Shown: positions 12,257 to 55,956 of the stretch, one piece after another
How positions within the stretch are numbered: position 1 is the stretch's first letter
Layout: each line of letters begins with the position of its first letter
NCBI GenBank assembly: GCA_049999805.1
Contig: JBNGIO010006293.1
Location: 351,102 to 407,057, forward strand
DNA from: Folioceros fuciformis
Taxonomy: Eukaryota
DNA: 55,956 nt
Direction of reading: 5' to 3'
The notes under the pieces: generated by a model
What the model was told of the DNA's origin: nothing
Databases searched by the model: none
Seen by the model: the letters and a program-made list of their open reading frames with translations, nothing else
Position numbers and translations under genes: made by a program

Positions 12257-14556
12257 TCACCCAACGTTAACTGAAGCCTCCGCCTCCGATGCAGTCTCGG
12301 GATCCAGCTTCGGGAAGTGCACTGCCTCGTATGAATGCTCTTCCTTTATGTTAGGAGATATGTCTGCCAGTGACGATGGGTCGAGGAGTGGCACGTACGC
12401 CTCTTTCTTCATTTCAAGAAAGAGCTCACCTAACCTTGCATATATACCTTTACTCTCAGGATGATTCGTATCGCCAACCAGAAAGCCATGCACTAGTCCG
12501 TCCATGTCAGTCCACCAGCTCTGACCTGGCTGCTTCCATGCCCCGGATCTCATTCTCCTGGCCTGCATCTCTTGAGCCTGCTCCCACATGTGGGCATCAG
12601 TGTATATGCTCGACATCAATACATATACTGCTGCATCTTTCGGGTCCAGCTTCACTGCTTCGTCGAAAGCATGGCGTCCCACCTCCACATTGCTCCACTT
12701 CCGACAGGCGCCCAACAGAGTGTGCCAAACTTCAGCGTTAGGCGGGACAGGCATTGTCCATACCAAAGCTAGTGCCTCCTCTAGTTGGCCCGCACGCCCC
12801 AGGAGATCCACCATGCATGTGTAGTGCTCCACAGTGGGAGTGATGCCATATTGTCTGCTCATGGCCTCGAAGTACTCTTGCCCATCGTGCACTAGACCTG
12901 TGTGACTGCAAACTGTTAGTAGTCGAAGGAATGTGATACCGGCTGGCTGTATGTAATCCTCTCTCATTCTGTGAAACAAATCGAAGACCAATTTGCTTTC
13001 CCCTTGACGGGCGTAGCCTGAGATGAGAGCATTCCATGCAACGTTGTCCCTCTCAGGCATGGCCTCAAACACGTGCTGTGCGTCAACCATGCTCCCAGAC
13101 TTTCCATACATGTTGATCAAACTGCCGGATATTAGCACATCAGTTTGCAGCCCTTGGTCTTTGATCTGTGCATGAAGCTGCCTACCCACATGCAAAGCTG
13201 CCATGTTTGCACATGCTTGTAGTAGGCACACAAATGTCACAGTATCTGCTGCAATGATGCCTTCTTCTTGCATAGCCCTGTAAAGACCAAGGGCTTCCTG
13301 CCCCATACCCTGCTGGGAATATCCTGATATCATGGCATTCCAGGTCACCACAGTTCTTTCACGAAGTTCATCAAATAGACCCCGAGCATCCTGTAAGCTG
13401 CCACACTTGGCATACATATTTACCAGACTGTTGGCCACAAACACATCAGCTTGAAGCCCTCGTTCCCCAATCTGTGCATGAAGCTGCTTGCCACTCTCCA
13501 GAGCTGAGGCCCCCACACTTGCACAAGCCTGTAGGAGGCACACAAACGTCACAGTATCAAGTGGAACAACTCCGTCTTCTTGCATAACCCTGTAAAGCTC
13601 AAGGGCTTCCTGCCCCATACCCTGCTGGGAGTATCCAGCTATCATGGCATTCCACGTCACCACATTCTTTTCACTAAGTCCGTCAAACACGGTCTGGGCG
13701 TCATCAAGGCTGTTACACTTTGCATACATGTTCACTAAACTGCTGGCTACAAACAAATCACCTTGAAGTCCTTGTTGTCTAATCTGAACATGAAGCTGCT
13801 TTCCCGTTTCCAAAGCCGCGGTGCCCAAACTTGCACATGCATGCAAGAGGCACACAAATGTCACACAATCTGGTGTAAGGATGCCTTCTTCCTGCATAGA
13901 CATATAGAGACTAAGAGCTTCTTGCCCCATACCGTGCTGGGAATATCCTGCTATTATAGCATTCCACGTTACCACATTCTTTTCACCAAGACCATCAAAC
14001 ACACCTCGTGCGGCCTCTAGGCTGCCGCACTTAGCGTACATGTTTACAAGGCTGTTGGCTACAAACAAATCAGCCTGCAGTCCTCGTCTCCTAGTTTCGG
14101 CATGAAGCTGCTTCCCCTTTTCCAGAGCCGGGGTGCCTGCACTTGCACAGGCCTGCAGGAGGGACACAAATGTCACCGAATTGGGTCCAGCAGTGCCGTC
14201 TTGTTTCATAGCAGTGAGCAGTGAAAGGCCCTCCGGTAACATGCCTTTCTGGCAATACCCTGCTATCAACGCATTCCATGTCACCACGTTTTTCTCACCA
14301 AGACCATCAAATAGGGCCTGCGCATTCTCTAGGGCACCACACTTGGCATACATGTTCACCAAGTTGTTGGCTACAAACAAATCAGCCTGCAGCCCCCGTT
14401 TTCCAATTTCAGCATGAATCTGCTGACCCATCTGCAAAGCTGGGGTACCCACACTTGCACATGCCTGCAGGGCGGACACAAATGTCCCAGAATTGAGTGT
14501 TATGGTGCCTTCGGCTTGCATAGCCCTGTAAAGATGTAGGGCTTCTTGCCCCATGC
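12257..14556 (-). CDS. PLS-class PPR protein, E+ with WW-type PG box and truncated DYW domain (5' end lost in gap)
   Basis: About five near-identical P-L-S triplets, P2L2S2, E1/E2, WKQPGQSWWTDMDG, then YVPLLD..KEEH and a stop before the HxE motif. Confidence 0.9.
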
Positions 14557-14656
14557 NNNNNNNNNNNNNNNNNNNNNNNNNNNNNNNNNNNNNNNNNNNN
14601 NNNNNNNNNNNNNNNNNNNNNNNNNNNNNNNNNNNNNNNNNNNNNNNNNNNNNNNN
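14557..14656. other. Assembly gap (100 N)
   Basis: Run of exactly 100 N. Confidence 0.99.
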
Positions 14657-15574
14657 TTCCCCAGCTTCCTTCCTCTCCAGTCCTATGCTACCCTCTCCTC
14701 TCCTCCGCAGCCCGCCTCGCAGCCATGTCCATAAAGACAACACACAAACGCAAATCAGGAGCGGCTCTTGCATCCGCCCGCCTCCTGGGGCTCCCGCAAC
14801 AGACCCCCACAACCACAAGCAAACCAGAAAGCAGAAACTGGCATCAGAGCCTCCAAGATTGCAGCATGCGGAAAGCGCAAGCAGATTGCAAACAGAAACA
14901 CGAAATCAGGCACACCCGGCGGCCGGGGCAAGCCTGGACTCACTTCGAGACGAGAAAACGCACGCGAATCACGCACCTGCGGCGTTTCGGCAGGGGGCGG
15001 GATCCCGGGCGCGAGGTGCAGATTCCGGGGACGCGAAGCGCAGCAGCGGAGGCTGGCTTGCTCGCTGCTTTGCGCTCAGCAACACAGAGGCGAAGGCAAA
15101 GGCGGAGGGCGACGCAAACCCTCGGCGAGCGTTGGCTTACCAAGTGCTGCCGGGCCGGCCTGTGGCATGGGCGAGGCCGGCGAAACCCGGGCGATATCCC
15201 GGCGAATACCATCCCCCAAATATCCCCGAACCGCTTCGCCCGGCCGCACGGAACGGGGGGCGGGACTGCCAGGATTTCAAACCCACCATGGCTCTTGCCG
15301 TTTCATTCGCCTCCTGCACCCGGTACGATTCTGGGCCTGGCCCCGCGCCCCTGCCACCTGTCCTCTCCAATGGCCTCCAGCAGATTCGCCACGCCCTGGT
15401 GGCACCCGCGGCGTAACTGCCAAAACTCTTCGCGCCTTTTTCTTTGGAGGGAAAGATCTGTATCGCCCTGATTTGCGTTCACCCGGGTACGGTACCGTGG
15501 GCTGACATGCGTCCGTGTTTATTATCACCCGTGTCTGCTTTCATTTCTGTTGCGCCACCGGGACCGGAGGCCCC

Positions 15575-19255: not shown

Positions 19256-20984
19256 CTACTGTTGTCTCACTTCACCCCACTCATCATCGTTGTTTTCAGG
19301 CTGGATGTCGAATCCACTACCGTCACCGCGACCAGCCTCAGACGTAAGCTCCTCAACTCCGCCTGAGGAATCTCCTTGTTTCTCCGAGCTCTCTTTCTTC
19401 TCATTTCCCAGCAAGTTACTCCACAGCTTTTCAGTCTCCCTGAGAACATTCCCTACCGAGGCACTCACTTTATTCCCTTGATTCTGCAGCTTCTGCGCAA
19501 AATTCTCCTGCGAGTTGGGTTCACTCTCACCTCCCTTCTGCAGATCCCTGGACAGATTCTGTGCCTCCTGGATTATTTTACCTGAAGCCTCGCTAACCTG
19601 GACCCCCTGGTCTTGCATATGCTGGCCGGCTTCTAAAGCAGCGTTCTGAGCATCTTCCTGCACCTTCCTCCTCTGCTGATCAACGTCATGGGCTATCTGG
19701 TCTGCCTTCTCCGTCACATTCCTTGTCTGCGCCTGTAAGTCTTGGATTACTTTCTCCGCCGACTCTCCGATCATCTCTCCTCTATTTTGAGCGTGCTCCC
19801 CGATCTGCCTAGCAGTCTCCGTCACTTTTTCCCCCACAGCCCTTGCCCTGTTCTCGGCCTCCTTCAGCTTCTGCAAGATTTGCGACCTGGACCCCTCCGA
19901 CCCATCACCCTCCCTGACAGTTTTCTCCGCCCCCTGAAGCTCCTCCGTCAAGCTGGCCACCTCTCTCTGCACCGCCTCCACGGTCTCAGACAAACCTCCC
20001 CAACCTTTCTTCGCAATATCCGCGGCCTGGGCCCCCACCTCCCGCACTTCCTCCGCGGCCATCGACAACCCCTTGAGCCTCCTGTCGATCACTTCCTTCA
20101 CCGTCTCCAGCCCTTTCCTAGCATTTGTCCCCGACGCAATCACATTCTCAGCCGACCACCTCAGCCCCTCGATCCCGTCCTTGATGGTCTCCACTATCTC
20201 CGTCCCAATTTCCTGCACAGTGGGCAACTCCCCGTTCTCATCATCACTCTTTGCCCTCGCCAGCGGATTTTCCACCGTGTCCCACGGTTTCACGCCTGGG
20301 CCAGCCTTTCCCGGAAGCTCCACGTCCTGAAACCCGTGACTCCCATTGTGCACCATCCGGGACCCTTCCCTCTCCGCCTCCGCGGCTGCCACCTCCTCTG
20401 CCTTGATCTCGATGGCTTCCACACTATCTTGGAGCGGAGACTCTTTCGCCTTCTCCCTAGCGAAGCTATGGAGCTCGGGGGTAACTCCTCCCTCGGCGGC
20501 TTCATCCGAGGCTATGTTCCTCAGCGCGGAGGCGTCTCCTATCCCTCCCTCGCTCCCCGAGGCCACATCCCTCAAGGACACAGTCTCTCCCTCTCCCGGC
20601 GCCCCGATCCGCACAAACTCACCCTTCACGATCAAGCCCGCCACACCGCGCCTCCTTCCTCCCGCCATTCTTGTAATCCTTGCTTTCAGATCGACCCTGC
20701 TGCTCACCATCCATCCCGCCACCGAGCCTCGCCTCACACACGCCGCTTGCCCTGCAACAGCAGGATACGAGGACATTCTTTACCCCTGTTCTTTCCAAGG
20801 AAGAGCCATCTCTGCGCCTCCTCTTGCAGGCAAACAAAAGGACGTAAGATGTTGCGAGTGCACGGCAGGATGTCTTACCTGTGAGTGATTGGGAAAGCGG
20901 CATCGGCATGTCCTGCGCAGTCCTGTGTGCCGCCGCAGGTACCTTTCGAGCTGCCATGGCAGCTGATCCCAGAGCTGACGCCAT
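19256..20984 (-). CDS. LEA-like / apolipophorin-like hydrophilic helical protein with predicted organelle transit peptide, 2 exons
   Basis: Exon 1 20984-20879 (MASALGSAAMAARK..., 35 codons+1), intron GTAAGA...TTGCAG 20878-20752 in matching phase, exon 2 rich in E/Q/A/K amphipathic repeats (AAEEVREVGAQAADIAKKG). Confidence 0.75.
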
Positions 20985-22120: not shown

Positions 22121-24088
22121 ATGGCCTACTTACTGCTAGGTTCTCTCCGAGACGTGGCGAGGTTTTGTGAGAAAGCACGGCTGGATGAGGCACTCAATGC
22201 TGCTCATTCCTTTCGGCAGGGCGGATTTGTGTTGCCCACGCATGTTCTGCAGTGTCTGCTGCAACGATGTACCAAAGGGAGGGAATTGGAAGTAGGGAGG
22301 AGGCTGCATTCGCTCATTGCTGAGAGGGGGTTCGACTCCTTGGTTTGGTGGGGCAACAAGCTGATTCGTCTCTTCGAGGTGTGTGGGAGTTTGCAGGAGG
22401 CGAATCAGGCGTTCCGGAGGATCTCCGAGCCTGATTCGAATGCTTGGCAAGCTATTATTCTGGCAAATTGCAGGCATGGAGCAGGGAAGCAGAGTATCAG
22501 GTTGTTCCAGGAGATGCAGCTTTCTAGGATTCAGCCGGACAACCATGTGTATGTTGCCGTGCTTAAAGCTTGTGCGAGCACGCGTTCCCTCGCAGATGGC
22601 AGGGCGATTCACGCCCAGATTGCAGAAGCTGGTTATGAGGATCATATCTTCGTTGGAAACACTCTTGTAGACATGTATGCAAAATGTGGTAGCCTGGAGG
22701 AGGCTCGCAGAGTCTTTGATGAGCTGCCGGAGAGAGACGTGGTGTCCTGGAATGCGTTGCTGGCAGGATTGGCTCAGCGGGGGCGAGGGGAGGAAGCTCT
22801 TTCACTTTTCCGGAGGATGCAACAGGAGGGAATGGAACCGGATTTGTTCACATTTTCGATTGTTCTCAAGGCCTGTGCAAGCATTGGAGGTTTGAAAGAT
22901 GGACGGCGGGTGCACATGCAACTCATGAACAGCGGCCTTGTGTCAAATGTTGTGATCGGGAATACCCTGGTTGATATGTATGCCAAATGCGGAAGCCTGG
23001 GTGAGGCAAGGGAGGTATTTGACAGCCTCCCTCAGAAAGATTTGTTCTCGTGGAATGCCATGGTTACTGGATATGCTAAGAGCGGGAGCTTCGAGGAAGC
23101 GTGGAGGCTCTTTGATCAGATGCCTGAAAGGAATGTCGTAACATGGTCTGCTATGATCGAAGAGTATGCTCAGTCTGGTCACGGGCAGGAAGCTCTCCAA
23201 CTCTTCGAAAAAATGCAGCAGGAAGGCATTAGGCCTAATAGGGTTACGTTCTTGGGTGCGCTCAAGGCTTGTAGCAGCATAGCAGCACTGCAACAGGGCC
23301 AGAAGATTCATACCATGCTTGTTAAAAGTGGGGTAGAGCTGGATGCAGTGCTTGGAAATACATTGTTGAGCATGTATTCCAAGTGTGGCAGCCTTGTTGA
23401 AGCCAGGGCAGTTTTTGACAGCCTGCCCAAGTCTGATCTCGTGACTTGGACGGCCATCATAGCCGCCTATGCCCACCATGGCCACGGACAGGACGCACTC
23501 CTACTTTTCCAGCAACTGCAGGCAGCAGGGATGAAACCTGATCACATAACATTTCTCTGTGTGCTCTCAGCATGTGGCCACGAGGGCCTTTTGGATGAGG
23601 GGTGTGCACTCTTTCAATCCATGTTCAAGAAATTTGGGATCAGTCCAGGGATGGAACATTATGCCTGCATGGTGGACCTGTTCTGCCGTGCTGGATATCT
23701 GGACAAGGCAGAGGATCTGATTAAGAACATGCCCTTGCAGCCAGATGTTGTAGTTTGGACCTCTGTGCTTGGAGCATGCCTTACCCATGGTAACATGAAG
23801 TTGGGTAGAACTGCCTTTGACGCTATCATCAACCTAGAGCCAGCTAATGCTGCAGCGTATGTGCTTATGTCTAACATCTATGAAGCGAGTGGAAATTGGG
23901 AAGGTCGAGCTGAGATTAGAGGCAAGATGCAAGCTGCAGGTGTGACGAAGACCCCAGGGAGAACGTGGATTGAGATTGACAATCAAGTTCATACTTTTCA
24001 GGTCGAAGACACAGACCATCCCCAACGCAAGGAAATCTTAGCACACTTGAAGCTACTTGGAGGGGCGACAGGGTGCGTAAACACTTGA
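22121..24088 (+). CDS. PLS-class PPR protein, E+ subclass (canonical PG box, no DYW), putative C-to-U editing specificity factor, 655 aa
   Basis: Intronless P/L/S repeats, E1/E2, KTPGRTWIEIDNQVHTF, HPQRKEI, then stop. Confidence 0.95.
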   Translation: MAYLLLGSLRDVARFCEKARLDEALNAAHSFRQGGFVLPTHVLQCLLQRCTKGRELEVGRRLHSLIAERGFDSLVWWGNKLIRLFEVCGSLQEANQAFRRISEPDSNAWQAIILANCRHGAGKQSIRLFQEMQLSRIQPDNHVYVAVLKACASTRSLADGRAIHAQIAEAGYEDHIFVGNTLVDMYAKCGSLEEARRVFDELPERDVVSWNALLAGLAQRGRGEEALSLFRRMQQEGMEPDLFTFSIVLKACASIGGLKDGRRVHMQLMNSGLVSNVVIGNTLVDMYAKCGSLGEAREVFDSLPQKDLFSWNAMVTGYAKSGSFEEAWRLFDQMPERNVVTWSAMIEEYAQSGHGQEALQLFEKMQQEGIRPNRVTFLGALKACSSIAALQQGQKIHTMLVKSGVELDAVLGNTLLSMYSKCGSLVEARAVFDSLPKSDLVTWTAIIAAYAHHGHGQDALLLFQQLQAAGMKPDHITFLCVLSACGHEGLLDEGCALFQSMFKKFGISPGMEHYACMVDLFCRAGYLDKAEDLIKNMPLQPDVVVWTSVLGACLTHGNMKLGRTAFDAIINLEPANAAAYVLMSNIYEASGNWEGRAEIRGKMQAAGVTKTPGRTWIEIDNQVHTFQVEDTDHPQRKEILAHLKLLGGATGCVNT

Positions 24089-24676
24089 AAAGAAACATCT
24101 TCGGATGCAAGACAAACAGAAAGCAGATACGTGTTACAACTATCAAGCACTACGTCACACTAAAAGTTGGTGGGAACAAATTTCCGTTAGCAATCCCTTC
24201 CACCTTGAGATTCACCAGAGGTGTGCTATTCTTATGCAGCAAGCCAAGACCCAGCAAATATGGCATGCAAACCTGCGGACCCGGGTGGTCAGCGGACATT
24301 GACAATGCCCTGGTACTAAACACACGTTGTGGGAACAGCAACCAACTGGCGATGAACATGAGCATGAAGCGGATAGATGGCATGAAGCGGATAGATGGCA
24401 TGAGCGACACGAGGATATGAAGGCAAGCAAGAACAGGAAAAAGCCGAGCTAAAATAGGAAGAAAAGGCACAAGCAAGAAACTCTTCTCCTTGAAGATCTC
24501 AAAAGTCGGCAGGAACACAAGATGCCCATGATCTCAACCACCCGCTGTACTTTTTCCTGCTACCGGATGGAAGTACCGGGCCTAGGTTCAGCCGAATGTG
24601 AAGGAAATGTTTTTTAGGACCAACGTTTCTATTCAGGGTTTTACACGTAACGCTACCCAGTCCCTCTAACTGCTTC

Positions 24677-26977
24677 TCATGGTCGACCCTTACAACTGCA
24701 ACTACCCGCTGCAAATCGATGCACACGGTATGCGTCCCTTACAACAATGCTTCTCCTTTCAACCCTGGACATGATCTCGGTGGAGCTGTGGCAATCGCTG
24801 CACATGCGTAGGTTCTTTGTTACTATCAAAGGTGCGCCACTGGGAGTGTTCAGAAGACCATAGGCTAGGGCTAGCTTCTCGGCATGCCCGCAGAGAGAAT
24901 CCTCCTTTTCCTTCTCAGACAGTGGCTTCAAAACCAACTTTGTGTGCGGGACGTGGCCCCCTTCCTCCTTCACCCGTACGTTCATGGTCTCTAGGATGAG
25001 GGAAAGATCGTCCCTACTATCTCCCACCACAAATGTGTGTACCTGCTCGTTAACCTCGATGCCTGCTACAGCAGGTTTCTTCTTAGCTCCTGCTACCATT
25101 CTCTGCCTTTCAATCCTCTCGGCATCTGCCCACCTACCTGCATTTGCATAGACACTGGCCATGAGAACATAGGTGGATGCCCGCTTCGGATCCACTCTGA
25201 CGAGACTCTCAAAACACCGCGTCGCCCTCTCTACATCCCCGTGACTTTTGCTGGCAGTCAGCAAAGACGTCAAGCCCACAAAATTGTCTTGACTTTCACA
25301 TGATAGTAACATCTTCTCTGCCTCATCTAGCTTTCCTGCACGCCCAAGAAGATCGATCATGCAATTGTAGTGCTGGACGTTAGGTCTGATGCCATGCTGC
25401 TCGACCATGGCACGGAAGTGCTTGTGACCCTCATCCACCAATCCCTGATGACTGCATGCGACCAAGACGTTAGTAAAGGTAGCATCATCAGGCTGAATAC
25501 CTGCGAGCACCATCTCCTCAAAACACACCAATGCCCTATGACCTTCATCACAAGATCCATACCCAGCTATCAGGGCATTCCATGTGACCACGTCCTTGGT
25601 GGCCAAGCTGTCAAAAACCGTGCGAGCAACTTCCAGTTCACCACATTTTGCGTACATGTCCACCAGGCATGTCCCCACCAGGATGTTATCTAGCTGTCCT
25701 CTTCCCACAATCTGTGAGTGCAGCTGTCTGCCCTCTTTCAGAGCGCCAGCGCTTGCACAGGCCTTTAAAAGGGAAGAAAATGTACAATCGTTACACAAAA
25801 TCAGACCGTCTTGCTTCATTTGTCCATACAGCACAAGTGCCTCATGACCAAGCCCGTGATTTGCATACCCAGATATCAGGGCCGTCCAGGTCACCACATC
25901 CTTGGTAGGCAAGCTGTCGAAAACCTGACGTGCATCTTCCAGTTGGCCACATTTTGCATACATGGCCACCAGGCAGCTCCCAACAAACAAATTAGGAGGA
26001 AAGCCACTGAGCAACACGTCGGAGTGCACTTTTCTGCCAGATTCCAGGTCGGTGGCCAGCGTGCAAGCTTGAAGGGCCGCTACAAAGACGTGAGCATCTG
26101 CCTTCGCACCTGACCTACACATCTCATGGTAAAGCTGTATGGCTTCCTTGGGTTTCCCATGTTTGGCATGTGCGGAGATGATGGAAACCCACATAAACGC
26201 ATCTGGCTTGCCAACATTGGTGAACACATCCATGGCCTCTTCTAACATACCTCCACCTGCGTACATACGCAAGAGATGGTTCCCCACGTAAGTACTTGAC
26301 TCGTACCCAAGCTTGACACTGAGATCATGAATTCTTCTCCCGAAAACTACATCCTTCTTAGCTGCACACAATTTGAGCACAGTATACAACAGGGACTGCG
26401 AGATAGGATAGTCAGTGACTGCCAAAAATTCCAGAGCTGCCGTGGCCTCAATAAGGTTTCCTTGCTGACATAATGTGATCACAGTTACAGCCGTGACACC
26501 CATTTCTGATCCTGCAGGGCGGCTGGGATCAGGCTTCTGGAAAAAGCTGAAGTGGGAGTTAGAAGGAGAGGCAGCTTGAGCCATCTGCACATCCAAAGCA
26601 GCCAACTGCTCATCCACCCAAGTTGGATTGGAGAAGTTGTCCAACCACAGGGCCTCGCCAGAACCTTTACGTCGGAAGTCCGGAGAACGGGAGCTCCTCT
26701 TATCTCGCCTGTTATCCCACCACATGGTAGGGTCGTAAAAAAACTGCCGCCACAACAGCTCCAGCTCCTGGCGACGACCATCCCTGGATACTGCTTCCCC
26801 AGCCAAAGACGTTGTGGGCAGTGCTGGGTTCCTCACGCTGCTGGACCTACTAGAGACTTCGTTGTTTGCTACTGGTTGACTCCATGAACTGAGCACAGCA
26901 GGAGCTCTTCGCACCATTGCCGTACACCCACCAGCGGGTTGGGTCCATGACGGATCTCTTTGCCATACTGTGGCCAT
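24677..26977 (-). CDS. PLS-DYW PPR protein of the KP/GRP type (candidate U-to-C RNA editing factor) with N-terminal PDF motif, 766 aa
   Basis: KKPAVAGIEV in place of the PG box, LCGHAEKLA, KNLRMCSDCH, C-terminal CSCKGRP; N-terminal WWDNR..K....PDFRRKGSGEALWL. Confidence 0.95.
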   Translation of the reverse strand: MATVWQRDPSWTQPAGGCTAMVRRAPAVLSSWSQPVANNEVSSRSSSVRNPALPTTSLAGEAVSRDGRRQELELLWRQFFYDPTMWWDNRRDKRSSRSPDFRRKGSGEALWLDNFSNPTWVDEQLAALDVQMAQAASPSNSHFSFFQKPDPSRPAGSEMGVTAVTVITLCQQGNLIEATAALEFLAVTDYPISQSLLYTVLKLCAAKKDVVFGRRIHDLSVKLGYESSTYVGNHLLRMYAGGGMLEEAMDVFTNVGKPDAFMWVSIISAHAKHGKPKEAIQLYHEMCRSGAKADAHVFVAALQACTLATDLESGRKVHSDVLLSGFPPNLFVGSCLVAMYAKCGQLEDARQVFDSLPTKDVVTWTALISGYANHGLGHEALVLYGQMKQDGLILCNDCTFSSLLKACASAGALKEGRQLHSQIVGRGQLDNILVGTCLVDMYAKCGELEVARTVFDSLATKDVVTWNALIAGYGSCDEGHRALVCFEEMVLAGIQPDDATFTNVLVACSHQGLVDEGHKHFRAMVEQHGIRPNVQHYNCMIDLLGRAGKLDEAEKMLLSCESQDNFVGLTSLLTASKSHGDVERATRCFESLVRVDPKRASTYVLMASVYANAGRWADAERIERQRMVAGAKKKPAVAGIEVNEQVHTFVVGDSRDDLSLILETMNVRVKEEGGHVPHTKLVLKPLSEKEKEDSLCGHAEKLALAYGLLNTPSGAPLIVTKNLRMCSDCHSSTEIMSRVERRSIVVRDAYRVHRFAAGSCSCKGRP

Positions 26978-27347
26978 CTGATGGGTAGCACTCTCGGAAG
27001 ACGAGAGGCCGCAGCTACAAGGATGCCTAGCTACTTTGCATCACCCAACAACTGAGGAGATCACAGAATCTTCAGCAAGTTCTGCGTGGACGATTGCCAA
27101 TGGCAAGGACACCCCTTCCCGCGTGCATTGTAGAAGCTCCCCATCACATCCAGCCAACACAAGAAACTAAATCTAAACGCTACCATCACAAACGTCTCCT
27201 CACCTTACCACCTAATATGCACATATCAGTATGGGCTGAACCGACTTGGATCGTCCAGCTCCTAACTCACCCTGGTAGTGCGACGTTTAGCTCGGCCTAA
27301 ATGATTTTCACTGACGACCGTCTGGTGAATCGCTTCCGGATCTGGAT

Positions 27348-29821
<2,474 letters not shown>

Positions 29822-36283: not shown

Positions 36284-38875
36284 TCAAGTCACTTGCAAAG
36301 AGATAGTCCCATAGCCCTGATAATGCCAGTTTTCATTCGCGGTCATCCATGTGCCAGGTTTCCGAGAGTTGGAAAGTTTCGCACCTACAGCAGCAAGTTT
36401 CCTGCAAGTCACACCGCCGACAGAGCTGGTGGCATCTGCTTGTGTGACAGGATCCTCAGTGCCTACAGCGACCGTCCGGCTTACATCACTATTCGCTGGT
36501 GAACCCTCAGGGTTGAGACCCCTGGCTTTTTGACAACCGCAGCCTTGAGATGGTTCCTGCACTTCTGCTCCGGAAGAAACATAATTTTCAAATTGAGGCG
36601 TCACAAACAGGCCACCATTCACAGGTGTCTCCTTCGTGCATGCTTCCTCGCATTCCCCATCTGCATGAGGACTGACAGTCAACTCCCCAAGACCGAAAGG
36701 CAAGGAGGTGCTCGCTGCGACATCACTATCCAGCTGGTGCCCACTATCGACAAACGGCCTGCTAGAGTTCGCCCAAGACACGGACGGCCTACGCGCATCC
36801 TCAGTTTGAGCCTCAGGTTGACCGTTCTTGTCACCACAAGGCGTCTCGATGGGGGACGACTTGTGGTGCGGCAGCTCGTTTTCTCTAACATCATCCTGCT
36901 TCCGGAGTTGAATTACAGGTTGAGTACCTTGCATCTTGTTGCTTACAGCAAGAGGCTTGTACACCTGAAGAGTTCTGGAAACCGGCTGCGTCATTGCAGA
37001 TTCATTTTCCTTGTCTGTTTGAGCGTCCAACACAAGGAGCTGCAAACATCCTCCGGAACCACCTCTGAGGTCAGACTCCACACATCGGCTGTCCCATCCT
37101 GAGCCACCCCTGGATTCCGGTTCGACACACCGACCGTCCCATGGAAGGCCTTCGACGTCATCGCACATTTTCTCCCTCTGAGCCTCCTCCTCATCCAACA
37201 GGATGCCAATAATACCAGAGTGAGCCCTCTGTATCAGGCAAAACAGCTTGATGGCAGCCAGTCTAGCTTCCTCCTTCACAGCCTCGATATCCCGATCATC
37301 TACGAACTCACATCTGTCCACAAAGTGCGCCGCTTTATCTGGCCGGTGCTTCAAACAAATGAGCAGATGAGCCCTTTCGACCTCACTCCTCATACAGCGG
37401 TGAGACACACCGATAATGGAATGATAGTCGATCGTGTAACCAATTTCCAACCTATGCCTGATCTCGGCGATTTTCATAATCACGGCCTCATAGTTCCCAT
37501 GCACATCTTCCTCCTCGGAATTGTGCGTGTGCCTCCAAACAGCACCTGGAAACTTGCGATGCCGGATGATAGCTTCATACAGCAGCTTGAGCTGCTCCAA
37601 ATCCTGGAAACATTCATAGAAGCAGCGAACCATCTCATACAGAGCAGCTCGAGTGCCAAGCGCTTCCACGCACACCGGATCCAGAGCTAAAGTTCTGTTG
37701 CAGTCAGCAATGGCATCGGGAATCCGTCCTGCCGCCTGATACGCCACAGCTCGATGCAAATAGCACTCGGCTATGAAACCCTGCGGAGTGCCCCTCCTGC
37801 CATCCAGAATCTTAGAAAAATGCCGGACAGCTTCAGTGTACAGTCCTGCGTCCATGGCCGCTATGGCCGCTGCTCGCCTCCTGAGCAAGAACTTGATATT
37901 CGCTAAGAGATGGTTCACAAGATCCGCCTCCGAAGGCCCTACGCTTCCCTCGCAACAAAAACTATCCTCGTTCAGATCATTACTCTCCTTCCTAGAGGCC
38001 GCAGAAGCCGCCCTCTTGCCGCTCTGCAGCAGAATCATGGCGTCCTCCATCATCCCGAGATGGCAGCATGCTTGCCCTAGCACTAAAAACCTCCATTCCT
38101 CCCGCTCCGTCCTCTTGGTGAGGAGCCGCTTCTTTATCCCAGCAAAAGACAGGTACCTGAGCACGGACTTCCGCCTCGCCTTGTCTGGCAAGTAGTCCGA
38201 GAGCAGCTTCACTTTCTCCGCCAGAGGACTATCCGGAGGAGTGCTGTCCTCGTGCTTGAAACTCGGAACGTAGTCGTACAACAGGCTGGCCACCTCCCTA
38301 AACCGCCTCAGGCTCAGCAAGCACCTGGCTTTGAGCTCCAGCGCCTTGTCCCAATTAGGATACAGCTTCAACGCGCCGTCCAGCAGCCCGACCGCAGCGT
38401 ACACGTCCGCCGGTTCTTGGCTTTGCACCAGCAGCCTGGCGTGACCTAAGTACTTCTCAGCCAACTGCGAACCACGCCACAACCTCAGCCACAGCAACAA
38501 AATACCAGCACAAAGCACAAACCACCACAAACCAAACCATTGCGCGCCATCCTCCATCCATCCAGTCCACACACGGATCCGAATCTTCCCCGCACCAGAC
38601 ACCTCACAGAATTCGTCCACAACAAACATCACACAGACCGCAGCGTCTCAGATCCAAGGCAGGGGAGCTCAGAATTGCAGCGACTCCCTTCCACACACCT
38701 TGCGGCTGCGGGACCAGCGGCGGCGCTTGAAGAGCACGAAGGAGAACATTGCGACGGCGCAGTAGAGAAGCACGATCCCAGCAACGGAGGGGTGCCAGGC
38801 GCGGCGCTGGGCCGCCTCTGCGCAGAGGCGGCGGGGGCACGAGAGAGCGGAATGCTCAGCGGAGGCAGCGGCCAT
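36284..38875 (-). CDS. TPR-containing DnaJ-like (J-domain) protein, 2 exons
   Basis: Exon 1 ends KRRRWSRSRK (38699), intron 38698-38465, exon 2 starts LAEKY. Motifs ALELKARCLLSLRRF, WRFLVLGQACCHLGMMEDAM, AIADCNRTLALDP, J-like LKHRPDKA. Confidence 0.9.
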
Positions 38876-54981: not shown

Positions 54982-55956
54982 CTAAGCAGCGATCTTGGAG
55001 GAATAGCCAAACACCTCACTGAACTTCTCCACCACCAAGAGCCCAGAATCGATGGACTCCAGAGGATCCTTTCTGAGCCGATGCCTGAGGCAGTTGGGGA
55101 TGACAGTGAGGATGTCCTTGGGAGTGACCTCGTCCCTCCCGCTGAGAGCAGCCAAGGCTTTGGCAGCGCGGTTGGTGACGATGTCCCCTCTGAGGCCATC
55201 CACATCCAGCTCTGCGCACACCTTGGATATCTTCACCCGCAGATCGTGTGAGACCTTCACACTAGGCAGTCGGGCCCGAGCCTGGGTAATCTTCTGCCTC
55301 AGCTCCTCTTGCGGTCCTGCGTACAAGTCCCTGAAGGTCTGGGGGTTCTGGTCGAAGCTGCCCCTCTCCTCCACGATCTTTACCCTCAGCTCGGCGTCCT
55401 TCACGGTGCCGACTTGTGAATGCATCCCAAACCTATCCAGGAGCTGCGGACGGAGCTCCCCCTCCTCGGGATTCCCAGACCCTATTAAAATAAACCTGGC
55501 AGGGTGGGAGATTGAAATCCCCTCCCTCTCAACCGTGTTCCATCCTGAAGCAGCAGAATCCAGCAGAACATCAACCAAATGGTCATCCAGAAGGTTCACC
55601 TCGTCCACATACAGAATGCCCCTGTTCGCCTTAGCCAGCAGCCCTGGCTCGAATGCCTTCACTCCCTCGGTGAGAGCCTTCTCGATGTCGATGGTGCCGC
55701 AAACCCTGTCCTCCGTCGCTCCCAACGGCAAGTCCACCATGTTAATCTTCACGTAGGTCACAGGCAGGTCCTGCTCGTTCTGCACCCGTTGCCGGATCTC
55801 CTCGCTCATGAGCTCGGGATCTTCCGGGTCGGAATTGAACGGGTCCCCTGACACCACCTTGATCTCCGGCAACAAATCCACCAGGGCCCTTACGGTGGTG
55901 GACTTCCCCGTCCCCCTGTCCCCCATGATCATCACACCGCCTATCTTAGGATCCAC
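54982..55956 (-). CDS. CHLI: Magnesium chelatase subunit I (5' part outside window)
   Basis: [16 protein letters not shown] (Walker A), [52 protein letters not shown]. Confidence 0.97.

Follow-up and report, generated by a model that had tools for sequence, protein, structure and literature searches.

Gene and domain layout

A 55,956-nucleotide stretch of the Folioceros fuciformis genome (contig JBNGIO010006293.1, positions 351,102 to 407,057; hereafter the window) contains a gene for a pentatricopeptide repeat (PPR) protein that carries near its N-terminus a PDF motif, a domain described on OSB proteins. The gene is a minus-strand open reading frame (ORF; 24677–26977) of 766 codons with zero internal stops. 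Upstream of its ATG, the frame stays open for only 22 more codons and includes no other start codon. Because the ORF is uninterrupted and the upstream frame is short and lacks an alternative start, the PDF segment and the PPR array are a single coding unit; an annotation artifact or gene-model fusion is ruled out by this one continuous ORF. The first-pass annotation of the locus had quoted a peptide for residues 75–128 and regarded it as an OSB-type PDF motif at the N-terminus of a GRP-type editing factor. Translation of 26594–26755 on the minus strand gives exactly that peptide, LWRQFFYDPTMWWDNRRDKRSSRSPDFRRKGSGEALWLDNFSNPTWVDEQLAAL, and the plus-strand frame across the same interval is unrelated to it. 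Both a six-frame hmmsearch and a DNA pattern search found the motif in one copy only in the 55,956-base window. The parts of the gene are listed in Table 1.

Table 1. Parts of the PDF-PPR gene, with positions in the window and residues of the encoded protein.
Feature	Residues	Positions	Strand	Basis
Whole gene, PDF-PPR-E-DYW:KP		24677..26977	-	Single ORF, 766 codons plus stop (P0002)
Presequence	1-66	26780..26977	-	S/T/A/R/P-rich composition; pLDDT <50 for 1-67
Single PDF motif	67-133	26579..26779	-	phmmer, BLASTP, OSB-only HMM; AF2 fold
Flexible linker, S/P/A-rich	134-159	26501..26578	-	pLDDT <50 for 130-159; composition
PLS-type PPR array, 12 helical hairpins	160-578	25244..26500	-	Pfam PPR, PPR_1, PPR_2, PPR_3; helix pairs H163 to H559
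E1/E2 motifs	579-633	25079..25243	-	Pfam E_motif 579-641, E 2.3e-13; two helix hairpins at 566-629
DYW:KP domain, GRP subgroup, 133 aa	634-766	24680..25078	-	Pfam DYW_deaminase, E 5.2e-33

The first 66 residues include six arginines, no lysine, four acidic residues, and 25 serine, threonine, or alanine residues; this composition and the predicted disorder suggest a putative organellar transit peptide. Pfam searches of the 766-aa protein recovered PPR (E 1.2e-55), E_motif, and DYW_deaminase (residues 674–764). Even at E ≤ 1, these searches found nothing in the first 176 residues and no match to SSB (PF00436) in the protein. The PLS array followed by E1/E2 motifs places the window protein among the PLS-class PPR editing factors. 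Its C-terminal 133-aa domain begins with KPAVAG, contains HAE, CSDC, Lys88, and Met92, and has GRP at the C-terminus. A GRP subgroup of DYW:KP domains has been described for hornworts, with a length of 132–133 aa, a KP rather than PG start, HAE...CxxC, Lys88, and a C-terminal GRP as its hallmarks (PMC9478123, PMC11845758). Judged by its sequence, the domain has every one of these hallmarks, and the Pfam domains together with the KP start, HAE, Lys88, and the GRP end bear out the assignment as a GRP-type editing factor. Identification as an OSB gene was considered and ruled out, because the OB fold is absent and the PDF motif is N-terminal, preceded by 66 disordered residues, rather than C-terminal. 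It is nearly certain that the protein combines a PDF-PPR-E-DYW:KP layout with a true PDF motif.

Identity of the PDF motif

With residues 64–136 as the phmmer query, 720 of 1.84 billion cluster representatives matched at E ≤ 1e-3, and 229 of them at E ≤ 1e-10. A second search used a profile (A3) that combined 16 PDF stretches with an established or probable PPR link; of the 7998 candidates scored with it, 619 reached E ≤ 1e-3. The best 150 of the 720 phmmer matches and the best 120 of the 619 profile matches were examined in detail; proteins with multiple copies rank first in these lists. The majority of the best 150 phmmer matches are 200–500 residues long and have one to several PDF stretches close to the C-terminus. 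A Pfam SSB match is present in 46 of these 150 proteins (two of the nine longest and 44 of the 141 others), and named entries among the OSB-like matches are OSB1, OSB2, or OSB3. For example, an entry named "protein OSB1, mitochondrial-like [Populus nigra]" (P0031) was matched at E 7e-27. BLASTP against this protein gave 48% identity over 66 aa (E 5e-20), as well as 48% identity over 56 aa for its second PDF copy (E 2e-16).

The first-pass annotation had proposed a profile comparison with OSB PDF motifs. Eighteen proteins that have a Pfam SSB domain or are called OSB in their source were taken as OSB proteins, and their 42 PDF copies, none of them PPR-linked, were used to build a hidden Markov model (HMM). 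This OSB-only HMM matched residues 72–130 of the window protein with 79.1 bits, compared to a best score of 7.7 bits when the first 170 residues were shuffled 1000 times, which rules out a chance motif. In addition, 141 matched proteins share a set of invariant or nearly invariant columns (W, P, W, D, R, K, P-D-F, L-W, P, and W), and the window protein has every one of these residues. A conserved Pro-Asp-Phe signature is reported to define the PDF motif, which is about 50 aa long and occurs on OSB proteins (PMC6963530); in the window protein this signature is P99-D100-F101. The phmmer matches, the BLASTP identity, and the conserved columns confirm the claimed match to OSB PDF motifs, and indicate that residues 75–128 lie in a genuine PDF domain homologous to those of OSB proteins. 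Word-index homology searches with a 73-aa fragment, or with the whole protein limited to residues 64–136, gave no scored match, and few 5-mers were shared. The ESM Atlas had no usable match for the PDF segment.

Predicted structure

The full-length AlphaFold2 (AF2) model, made with a 23-row alignment, has a mean predicted local distance difference test (pLDDT) score of 80.6. The two segments below 50 are given in Table 1, and the PDF region has values of 69–86 per ten-residue block. From the N-terminus, the model has a helix-sheet-helix module at residues 66–135, 14 helical hairpins at 163–629, and then a deaminase fold. When the PDF region was modeled in isolation (residues 55–145; 37-row alignment), the mean pLDDT was 84.3 with core blocks above 90, and the predicted fold consists of a helix, a small three-stranded beta sheet, and another helix. 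According to these models, the PDF motif folds on its own as a module of about 60 residues, flanked by the disordered presequence and by a linker of about 30 residues that is also disordered. A PDB sequence search with the PDF motif gave a best E of 0.22, to unrelated chlorophyll-binding proteins. Foldseek searches of the PDF model against the PDB gave no match at E ≤ 0.001, and the best result of a wide VIA-align search (Z 4.5) is below the meaningful level of that tool.

A PDF-PPR family in seed-free land plants

PPR tracts are present in eight of the best 150 phmmer matches, namely three from Diphasiastrum complanatum, one from Adiantum capillus-veneris, two from Pteridium aquilinum, and two without a species label. 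Among the best 120 profile matches, 53 contain PPR Pfam domains (50 from Diphasiastrum, one from Adiantum, one from Pteridium, and one without a species label). Taken together, these lists contain at least 58 distinct cluster representatives with PDF-PPR fusions, of which 52 are from the lycophyte Diphasiastrum, four are from ferns, and two have no species label. This count is derived from 69 PDF+PPR proteins by removal of 10 cluster-member isoforms and the window protein, and the Pteridium entries are transcript ORFs. None of the 58 is from a seed plant, although the other entries in both lists are predominantly seed-plant OSBs. This pattern agrees with the first-pass statement that the PDF motif is not a normal part of angiosperm PLS factors.

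Each representative has one to four PDF copies, which are N-terminal to the first PPR in all cases except P0196, where the PDF matches extend into the PPR region. In these relatives, tandem arrays of two to four copies can be as long as about 250 residues. A cluster look-up added one more member (P0284; 692 aa), and four short proteins (P0120, P0122, P0130, and P0152) resemble N-terminal fragments of PDF-PPR proteins. One of these four is named "pentatricopeptide repeat protein" and the cluster of another holds Sphagnum jensenii entries. An alignment of 16 PDF stretches, comprising the window protein and 15 others (11 with a PPR tract and the four short fragments), has 11 invariant columns. 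The sources are the window protein, lycophytes, ferns, the Sphagnum-containing cluster, and others without a species label. The 11 columns that are invariant in the PPR context are the same as those conserved in OSB proteins. The window protein thus belongs to a sizeable PDF-PPR subfamily of seed-free land plants.

As a side observation, three S. jensenii proteins (P0235, P0280, and P0281) have PDF motifs of the PPR-linked type with an AAMAPG-type linker. In P0280, the PDF motif is followed by a brief PPR-like start (SWNVRLARF...), after which the model ends. These three proteins may be relics or truncated models of moss PDF-PPR genes.

The subfamily apparently has not been described. In the literature searched, no paper reports a PDF motif in connection with PPR or DYW proteins, although an earlier mention is possible, including in supplements and in three key primary papers. 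A 2026 survey of editing-factor domain fusions lists RRM, MORF, and OZ fusions, and the term OSB is absent from the portion of its text that was accessible (PMC13386178). A 2026 survey of the OSB family is described as having demanded both OB and PDF domains (PMC13393729), and would therefore exclude PDF-PPR proteins. The hornwort genome paper mentions PPR expansion only (PMC7027989).

The evolutionary relationships among PDF copies were examined with a maximum-likelihood tree (IQ-TREE; 61 columns) of 91 chosen copies, including 34 PPR-linked and 57 OSB-like ones. The architecture label changes four times on this tree, compared to a mean of 27.7 changes in shuffles (0 of 500 shuffles as low), with the clustering inflated by near-identical Diphasiastrum paralogues and the alignment being short. 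The window PDF clusters with two PPR-linked PDFs of Pteridium (SH-aLRT 87). After two proteins of uncertain architecture were removed, a single clade of all PPR-linked copies was not rejected by the approximately unbiased (AU) test (p 0.74), and the constrained one-clade tree is 9.1 log-likelihood units better than the result of the free search. A FastTree analysis of all 391 PDF copies showed weak clustering of 13 PPR-linked copies (nine changes, compared to a shuffle minimum of 10 and mean of 12.8). These trees are compatible with a single old PDF-PPR fusion.

Association with DYW domains

The PDF motif is not restricted to KP-type enzymes. Most of the listed PDF-PPR fusions lack any DYW domain. 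Such a domain is present in 13 of the 58 listed representatives, which all come from one lycophyte species and therefore bear on restriction rather than on enrichment in hornworts. All 13 end in DYW, and the HSE...CxxC pattern was matched in 12 and missing in the thirteenth. None of them is of the KP type, such that the window protein is the sole HAE...GRP case. The first-pass annotation had suggested counting how often the motif occurs together with KP and with other DYW types. This count was carried out for the 58 listed representatives only; there, the PDF motif accompanies a canonical DYW domain (13) or no DYW domain, and never KP.

Possible roles of the PDF motif

PPR arrays bind RNA in parallel, with the N-terminal repeats toward the RNA 5' side. 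With this orientation, the PDF motif would be attached to the protein end that is most distant from the editing site. The reading that we favor, although tentatively, is that the motif serves as an anchor to single-stranded DNA (ssDNA) of the organelle nucleoid and thereby keeps the editing factor near nascent transcripts. The first-pass annotation had already suggested tethering to nucleoids or nascent transcripts, which is a plausible idea. After import into the organelle, the presequence would be removed and the PDF motif retained, which could then anchor single-stranded nucleic acid without sequence specificity. The favored ligand would be nucleoid ssDNA, as found in transcription bubbles, R-loops, and recombination and replication intermediates. 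This preference is drawn from reviews, according to which ssDNA binding by OSB1 is due to the PDF motif or can be achieved by this motif alone, and both OSB1 and OSB2 favor ssDNA over double-stranded DNA or RNA (PMC6963530, PMC4166229, PMC6451138). An editing factor anchored in this way would be held beside nascent transcripts, where its PPR array would read the RNA target and its DYW:KP domain would edit, with the PDF motif standing outside the amination chemistry.

Several points weigh against this reading. The ssDNA preference is reported by the reviews for angiosperm OSBs rather than for a PPR-linked PDF, and single-stranded RNA (ssRNA) is the obvious alternative ligand for an RNA-editing factor. 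The PDF fold has no solved relative by PDB sequence search, Foldseek, or VIA-align, and thus offers no hint of the binding mode. Moreover, the family was listed from the best 150 of 720 and the best 120 of 619 matches, in a collection that probably contains no hornwort proteomes (the window protein itself is absent), which limits the family count in hornworts. An extended version of the anchor reading would regard PDF-PPR proteins as an ancient class, in which one to four PDFs dock on nucleoid ssDNA and couple C-to-U and U-to-C editing to transcription in lineages without MORF, with the module having been lost in seed plants; we consider this doubtful.

In seed plants, MORF proteins raise the affinity of PLS arrays in trans, and the PDF motif may act comparably in cis. 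It would bind ssRNA just 5' of the PPR footprint, or capture RNA non-specifically, so that the PLS array would have a higher on-rate and affinity. This is a possible explanation, albeit an unlikely one. In the model, the flexible linker of about 30 residues at the N-terminus would place the PDF motif over upstream RNA, and arrays of two to four copies before the PPRs would suit avidity. The absence of seed plants among the 58 listed representatives also fits, as does a modeling of hornwort and moss editosomes as PPR and ORRM only (PMC13386178). However, OSB1 and OSB2 are reported to bind ssDNA over RNA (PMC4166229), and site specificity could suffer from additional non-specific binding to RNA. 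In the PPR context, the PDF motif is strongly conserved, which is consistent with either ligand, ssDNA or ssRNA. Alternatively, the motif may have no nucleic acid ligand. It may mediate protein contacts (with OSBs, with nucleoid or editosome components, or in oligomerization), for which the reported tetrameric state of AtOSB2 as a whole protein provides some precedent (PMC6963530). It may also be a neutral passenger of the retroposition-driven PPR expansion, given that hornwort and lycophyte PPR genes are reported to have grown largely by dispersed duplication and retroposition (PMC13386178), processes that copy attached domains. A neutral domain would be expected to decay, yet the 16 aligned stretches share 11 invariant columns and the motif is confidently folded in the models, such that a role of this kind appears improbable. 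The candidate roles are thus ranked with the nucleoid ssDNA anchor before the cis-acting ssRNA affinity enhancer, and the latter before protein interaction or a passenger state.

Two other explanations have very little probability. Because the segment lies within the first 133 residues in a family of organelle-targeted proteins, it may be cut off as part of the targeting peptide, leaving the mature protein without a PDF motif, as the first-pass annotation had allowed for. However, 66 disordered, transit-peptide-like residues already precede the PDF motif, which has core pLDDT values above 90 and is conserved at the same positions as the functional OSB PDFs. Furthermore, the tandem arrays of up to about 250 residues in its relatives extend far beyond typical presequences. 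Removal of this conserved, confidently folded domain with the transit peptide is thus very unlikely. The same annotation had also raised the idea that the PDF motif assists the amination chemistry. U-to-C editing by the window protein is a predicted activity, and the co-occurrence of the PDF motif and the DYW:KP domain in one protein is the only point in favor of such assistance. In comparison, synthetic GRP-based KP2 and KP3, which lack a PDF motif, are reported to edit U-to-C in Escherichia coli and human cells (PMC9478123), and the U-to-C reaction is attributed to Lys88 within the DYW:KP domain (PMC11845758), a residue that the window protein has. The PDF motif lies at the opposite end of the protein from the DYW domain, behind the predicted disordered linker, and is separated from the active site by about 500 residues and the entire PPR solenoid in the model. 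The prevalence of DYW-less fusions and of canonical DYW domains among the other PDF-PPR proteins also speaks against it. Given that synthetic GRP-type KP domains edit without a PDF motif, a role in the amination chemistry is unlikely, and the PDF motif as a direct helper of the DYW:KP domain has hardly any chance of being correct.

Neighboring genes and other PDF proteins

The window contains two other PLS-class PPR ORFs within 15 kb, both without a PDF motif. In one of them (12257–14773, minus strand), the sequence is interrupted by a stretch of N (the window has 200 N), and no DYW domain is present at its end. The other (22121–24088, plus strand) ends soon after the E/E+ region and is located tail-to-tail with the PDF-PPR gene, with about 590 bp between them. 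On the upstream side, a divergent multi-exon gene starts at 27348 on the plus strand, with about 370 bp separating it from the PDF-PPR start codon. Based on the N-terminus of its first ORF, we presume that this gene resembles those for ALG1-type beta-mannosyltransferases. An ORF that runs off the end of the window (54982–55956, minus strand) has an AAA+ P-loop (GDRGTGKST), and we take it to resemble magnesium chelatase subunit I (CHLI). Two further minus-strand ORFs encode a 506-aa protein that is rich in E, K, and A and is possibly LEA-like or coiled-coil (19256–20776), and a 781-aa protein with TPR-like and J-domain-like stretches (36284–38629).

Over 24000–27700, contigs of one sequencing run (X1) extend across the gene and the intergenic DNA on both sides with a similarly low depth, and the longest pieces have no differing letters. 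This run has the character of DNA from the same organism or from one very close to it, and is uninformative on transcription. The PPR-repeat parts of the gene have a very high summed depth in this run, with many joints from paralogous PPR genes. This pattern illustrates the repetitive nature of the PPR gene family in the source organism.

PDF repeats were also found in other protein contexts. Seven proteins (P0004, P0005, P0009, P0010, P0012, P0013, and P0064) have 7–11 tandem PDF-like repeats of a W.D[FY]R...PDFK variant and no Pfam SSB match; one such protein comes from the snow alga Sanguina aurantia, a chlorophyte. A protein with four repeats is present in the transcriptome of the dinoflagellate Yihiella yeosuensis. 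Based on the entries from these two species, PDF repeats exist outside the streptophyte OSBs. Among angiosperms, a 1160-aa protein of Kingdonia uniflora (P0003) has 13 PDF copies and a weak SSB match. A 1526-aa protein of Coptis chinensis (P0038) has three PDF copies followed by a kinesin motor. These two proteins may be gene-model fusions or real expansions.

Comparison with known systems

PLS editing factors are usually described as consisting of a transit peptide, a PPR array, and E/DYW domains. The PDF motif is an extra conserved domain in dozens of these proteins across seed-free lineages, and extends the known range of the motif beyond OSB proteins. PDF-PPR proteins may provide a handle on where in the organelle editing occurs, particularly on its coupling to the nucleoid and transcription, and on how PLS proteins gain useful affinity in plants without MORF. 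They also supply many natural sequences for solving the structure of the motif. Designer U-to-C and C-to-U editors are assembled from consensus PPR and DYW building blocks, and their performance might benefit from an accessory module of natural origin.

With OSB proteins, the window protein shares a PDF motif of about 50–60 residues with the signature W..F..P..WWDNR..K...PDF.HK...EALW...P.WV, and an N-terminal presequence for organelle import, which is putative in the window protein. However, OSBs have a central OB-fold (SSB-like) domain and C-terminal PDFs and act in DNA recombination, whereas the window protein has an N-terminal PDF motif followed by PPR, E, and DYW:KP, lacks an SSB domain, and possesses the full apparatus of an RNA-editing factor. 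With the hornwort GRP-subgroup DYW:KP PPR proteins, on which KP2 and KP3 are based, it shares the 133-aa length, KP start, HAE, CxxC pair, Lys88, Met92, and GRP end (PMC9478123, PMC11845758). The accessible parts of the published descriptions of this subgroup present a PLS array and C-terminal domains and leave an N-terminal PDF motif unmentioned, and KP2 and KP3 are PDF-free.

MORF/RIP proteins and ORRM cofactors (PMC13386178) may be functional analogues of the PDF motif in that they would likewise give PLS-class PPR proteins accessory help on their substrates, but they are separate polypeptides with a sequence and fold unrelated to the PDF motif. The closest counterparts are the PDF-PPR proteins of D. 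complanatum, A. capillus-veneris, and P. aquilinum, which are labeled "hypothetical protein" or "pentatricopeptide repeat-containing protein". These proteins share with the window protein the presequence, one to four PDFs, and the PLS-type PPR array. In contrast to its KP-type C-terminus, those listed have E-type or HSE...DYW C-termini and none is KP, and many have two or three PDFs, compared to one in the window protein.

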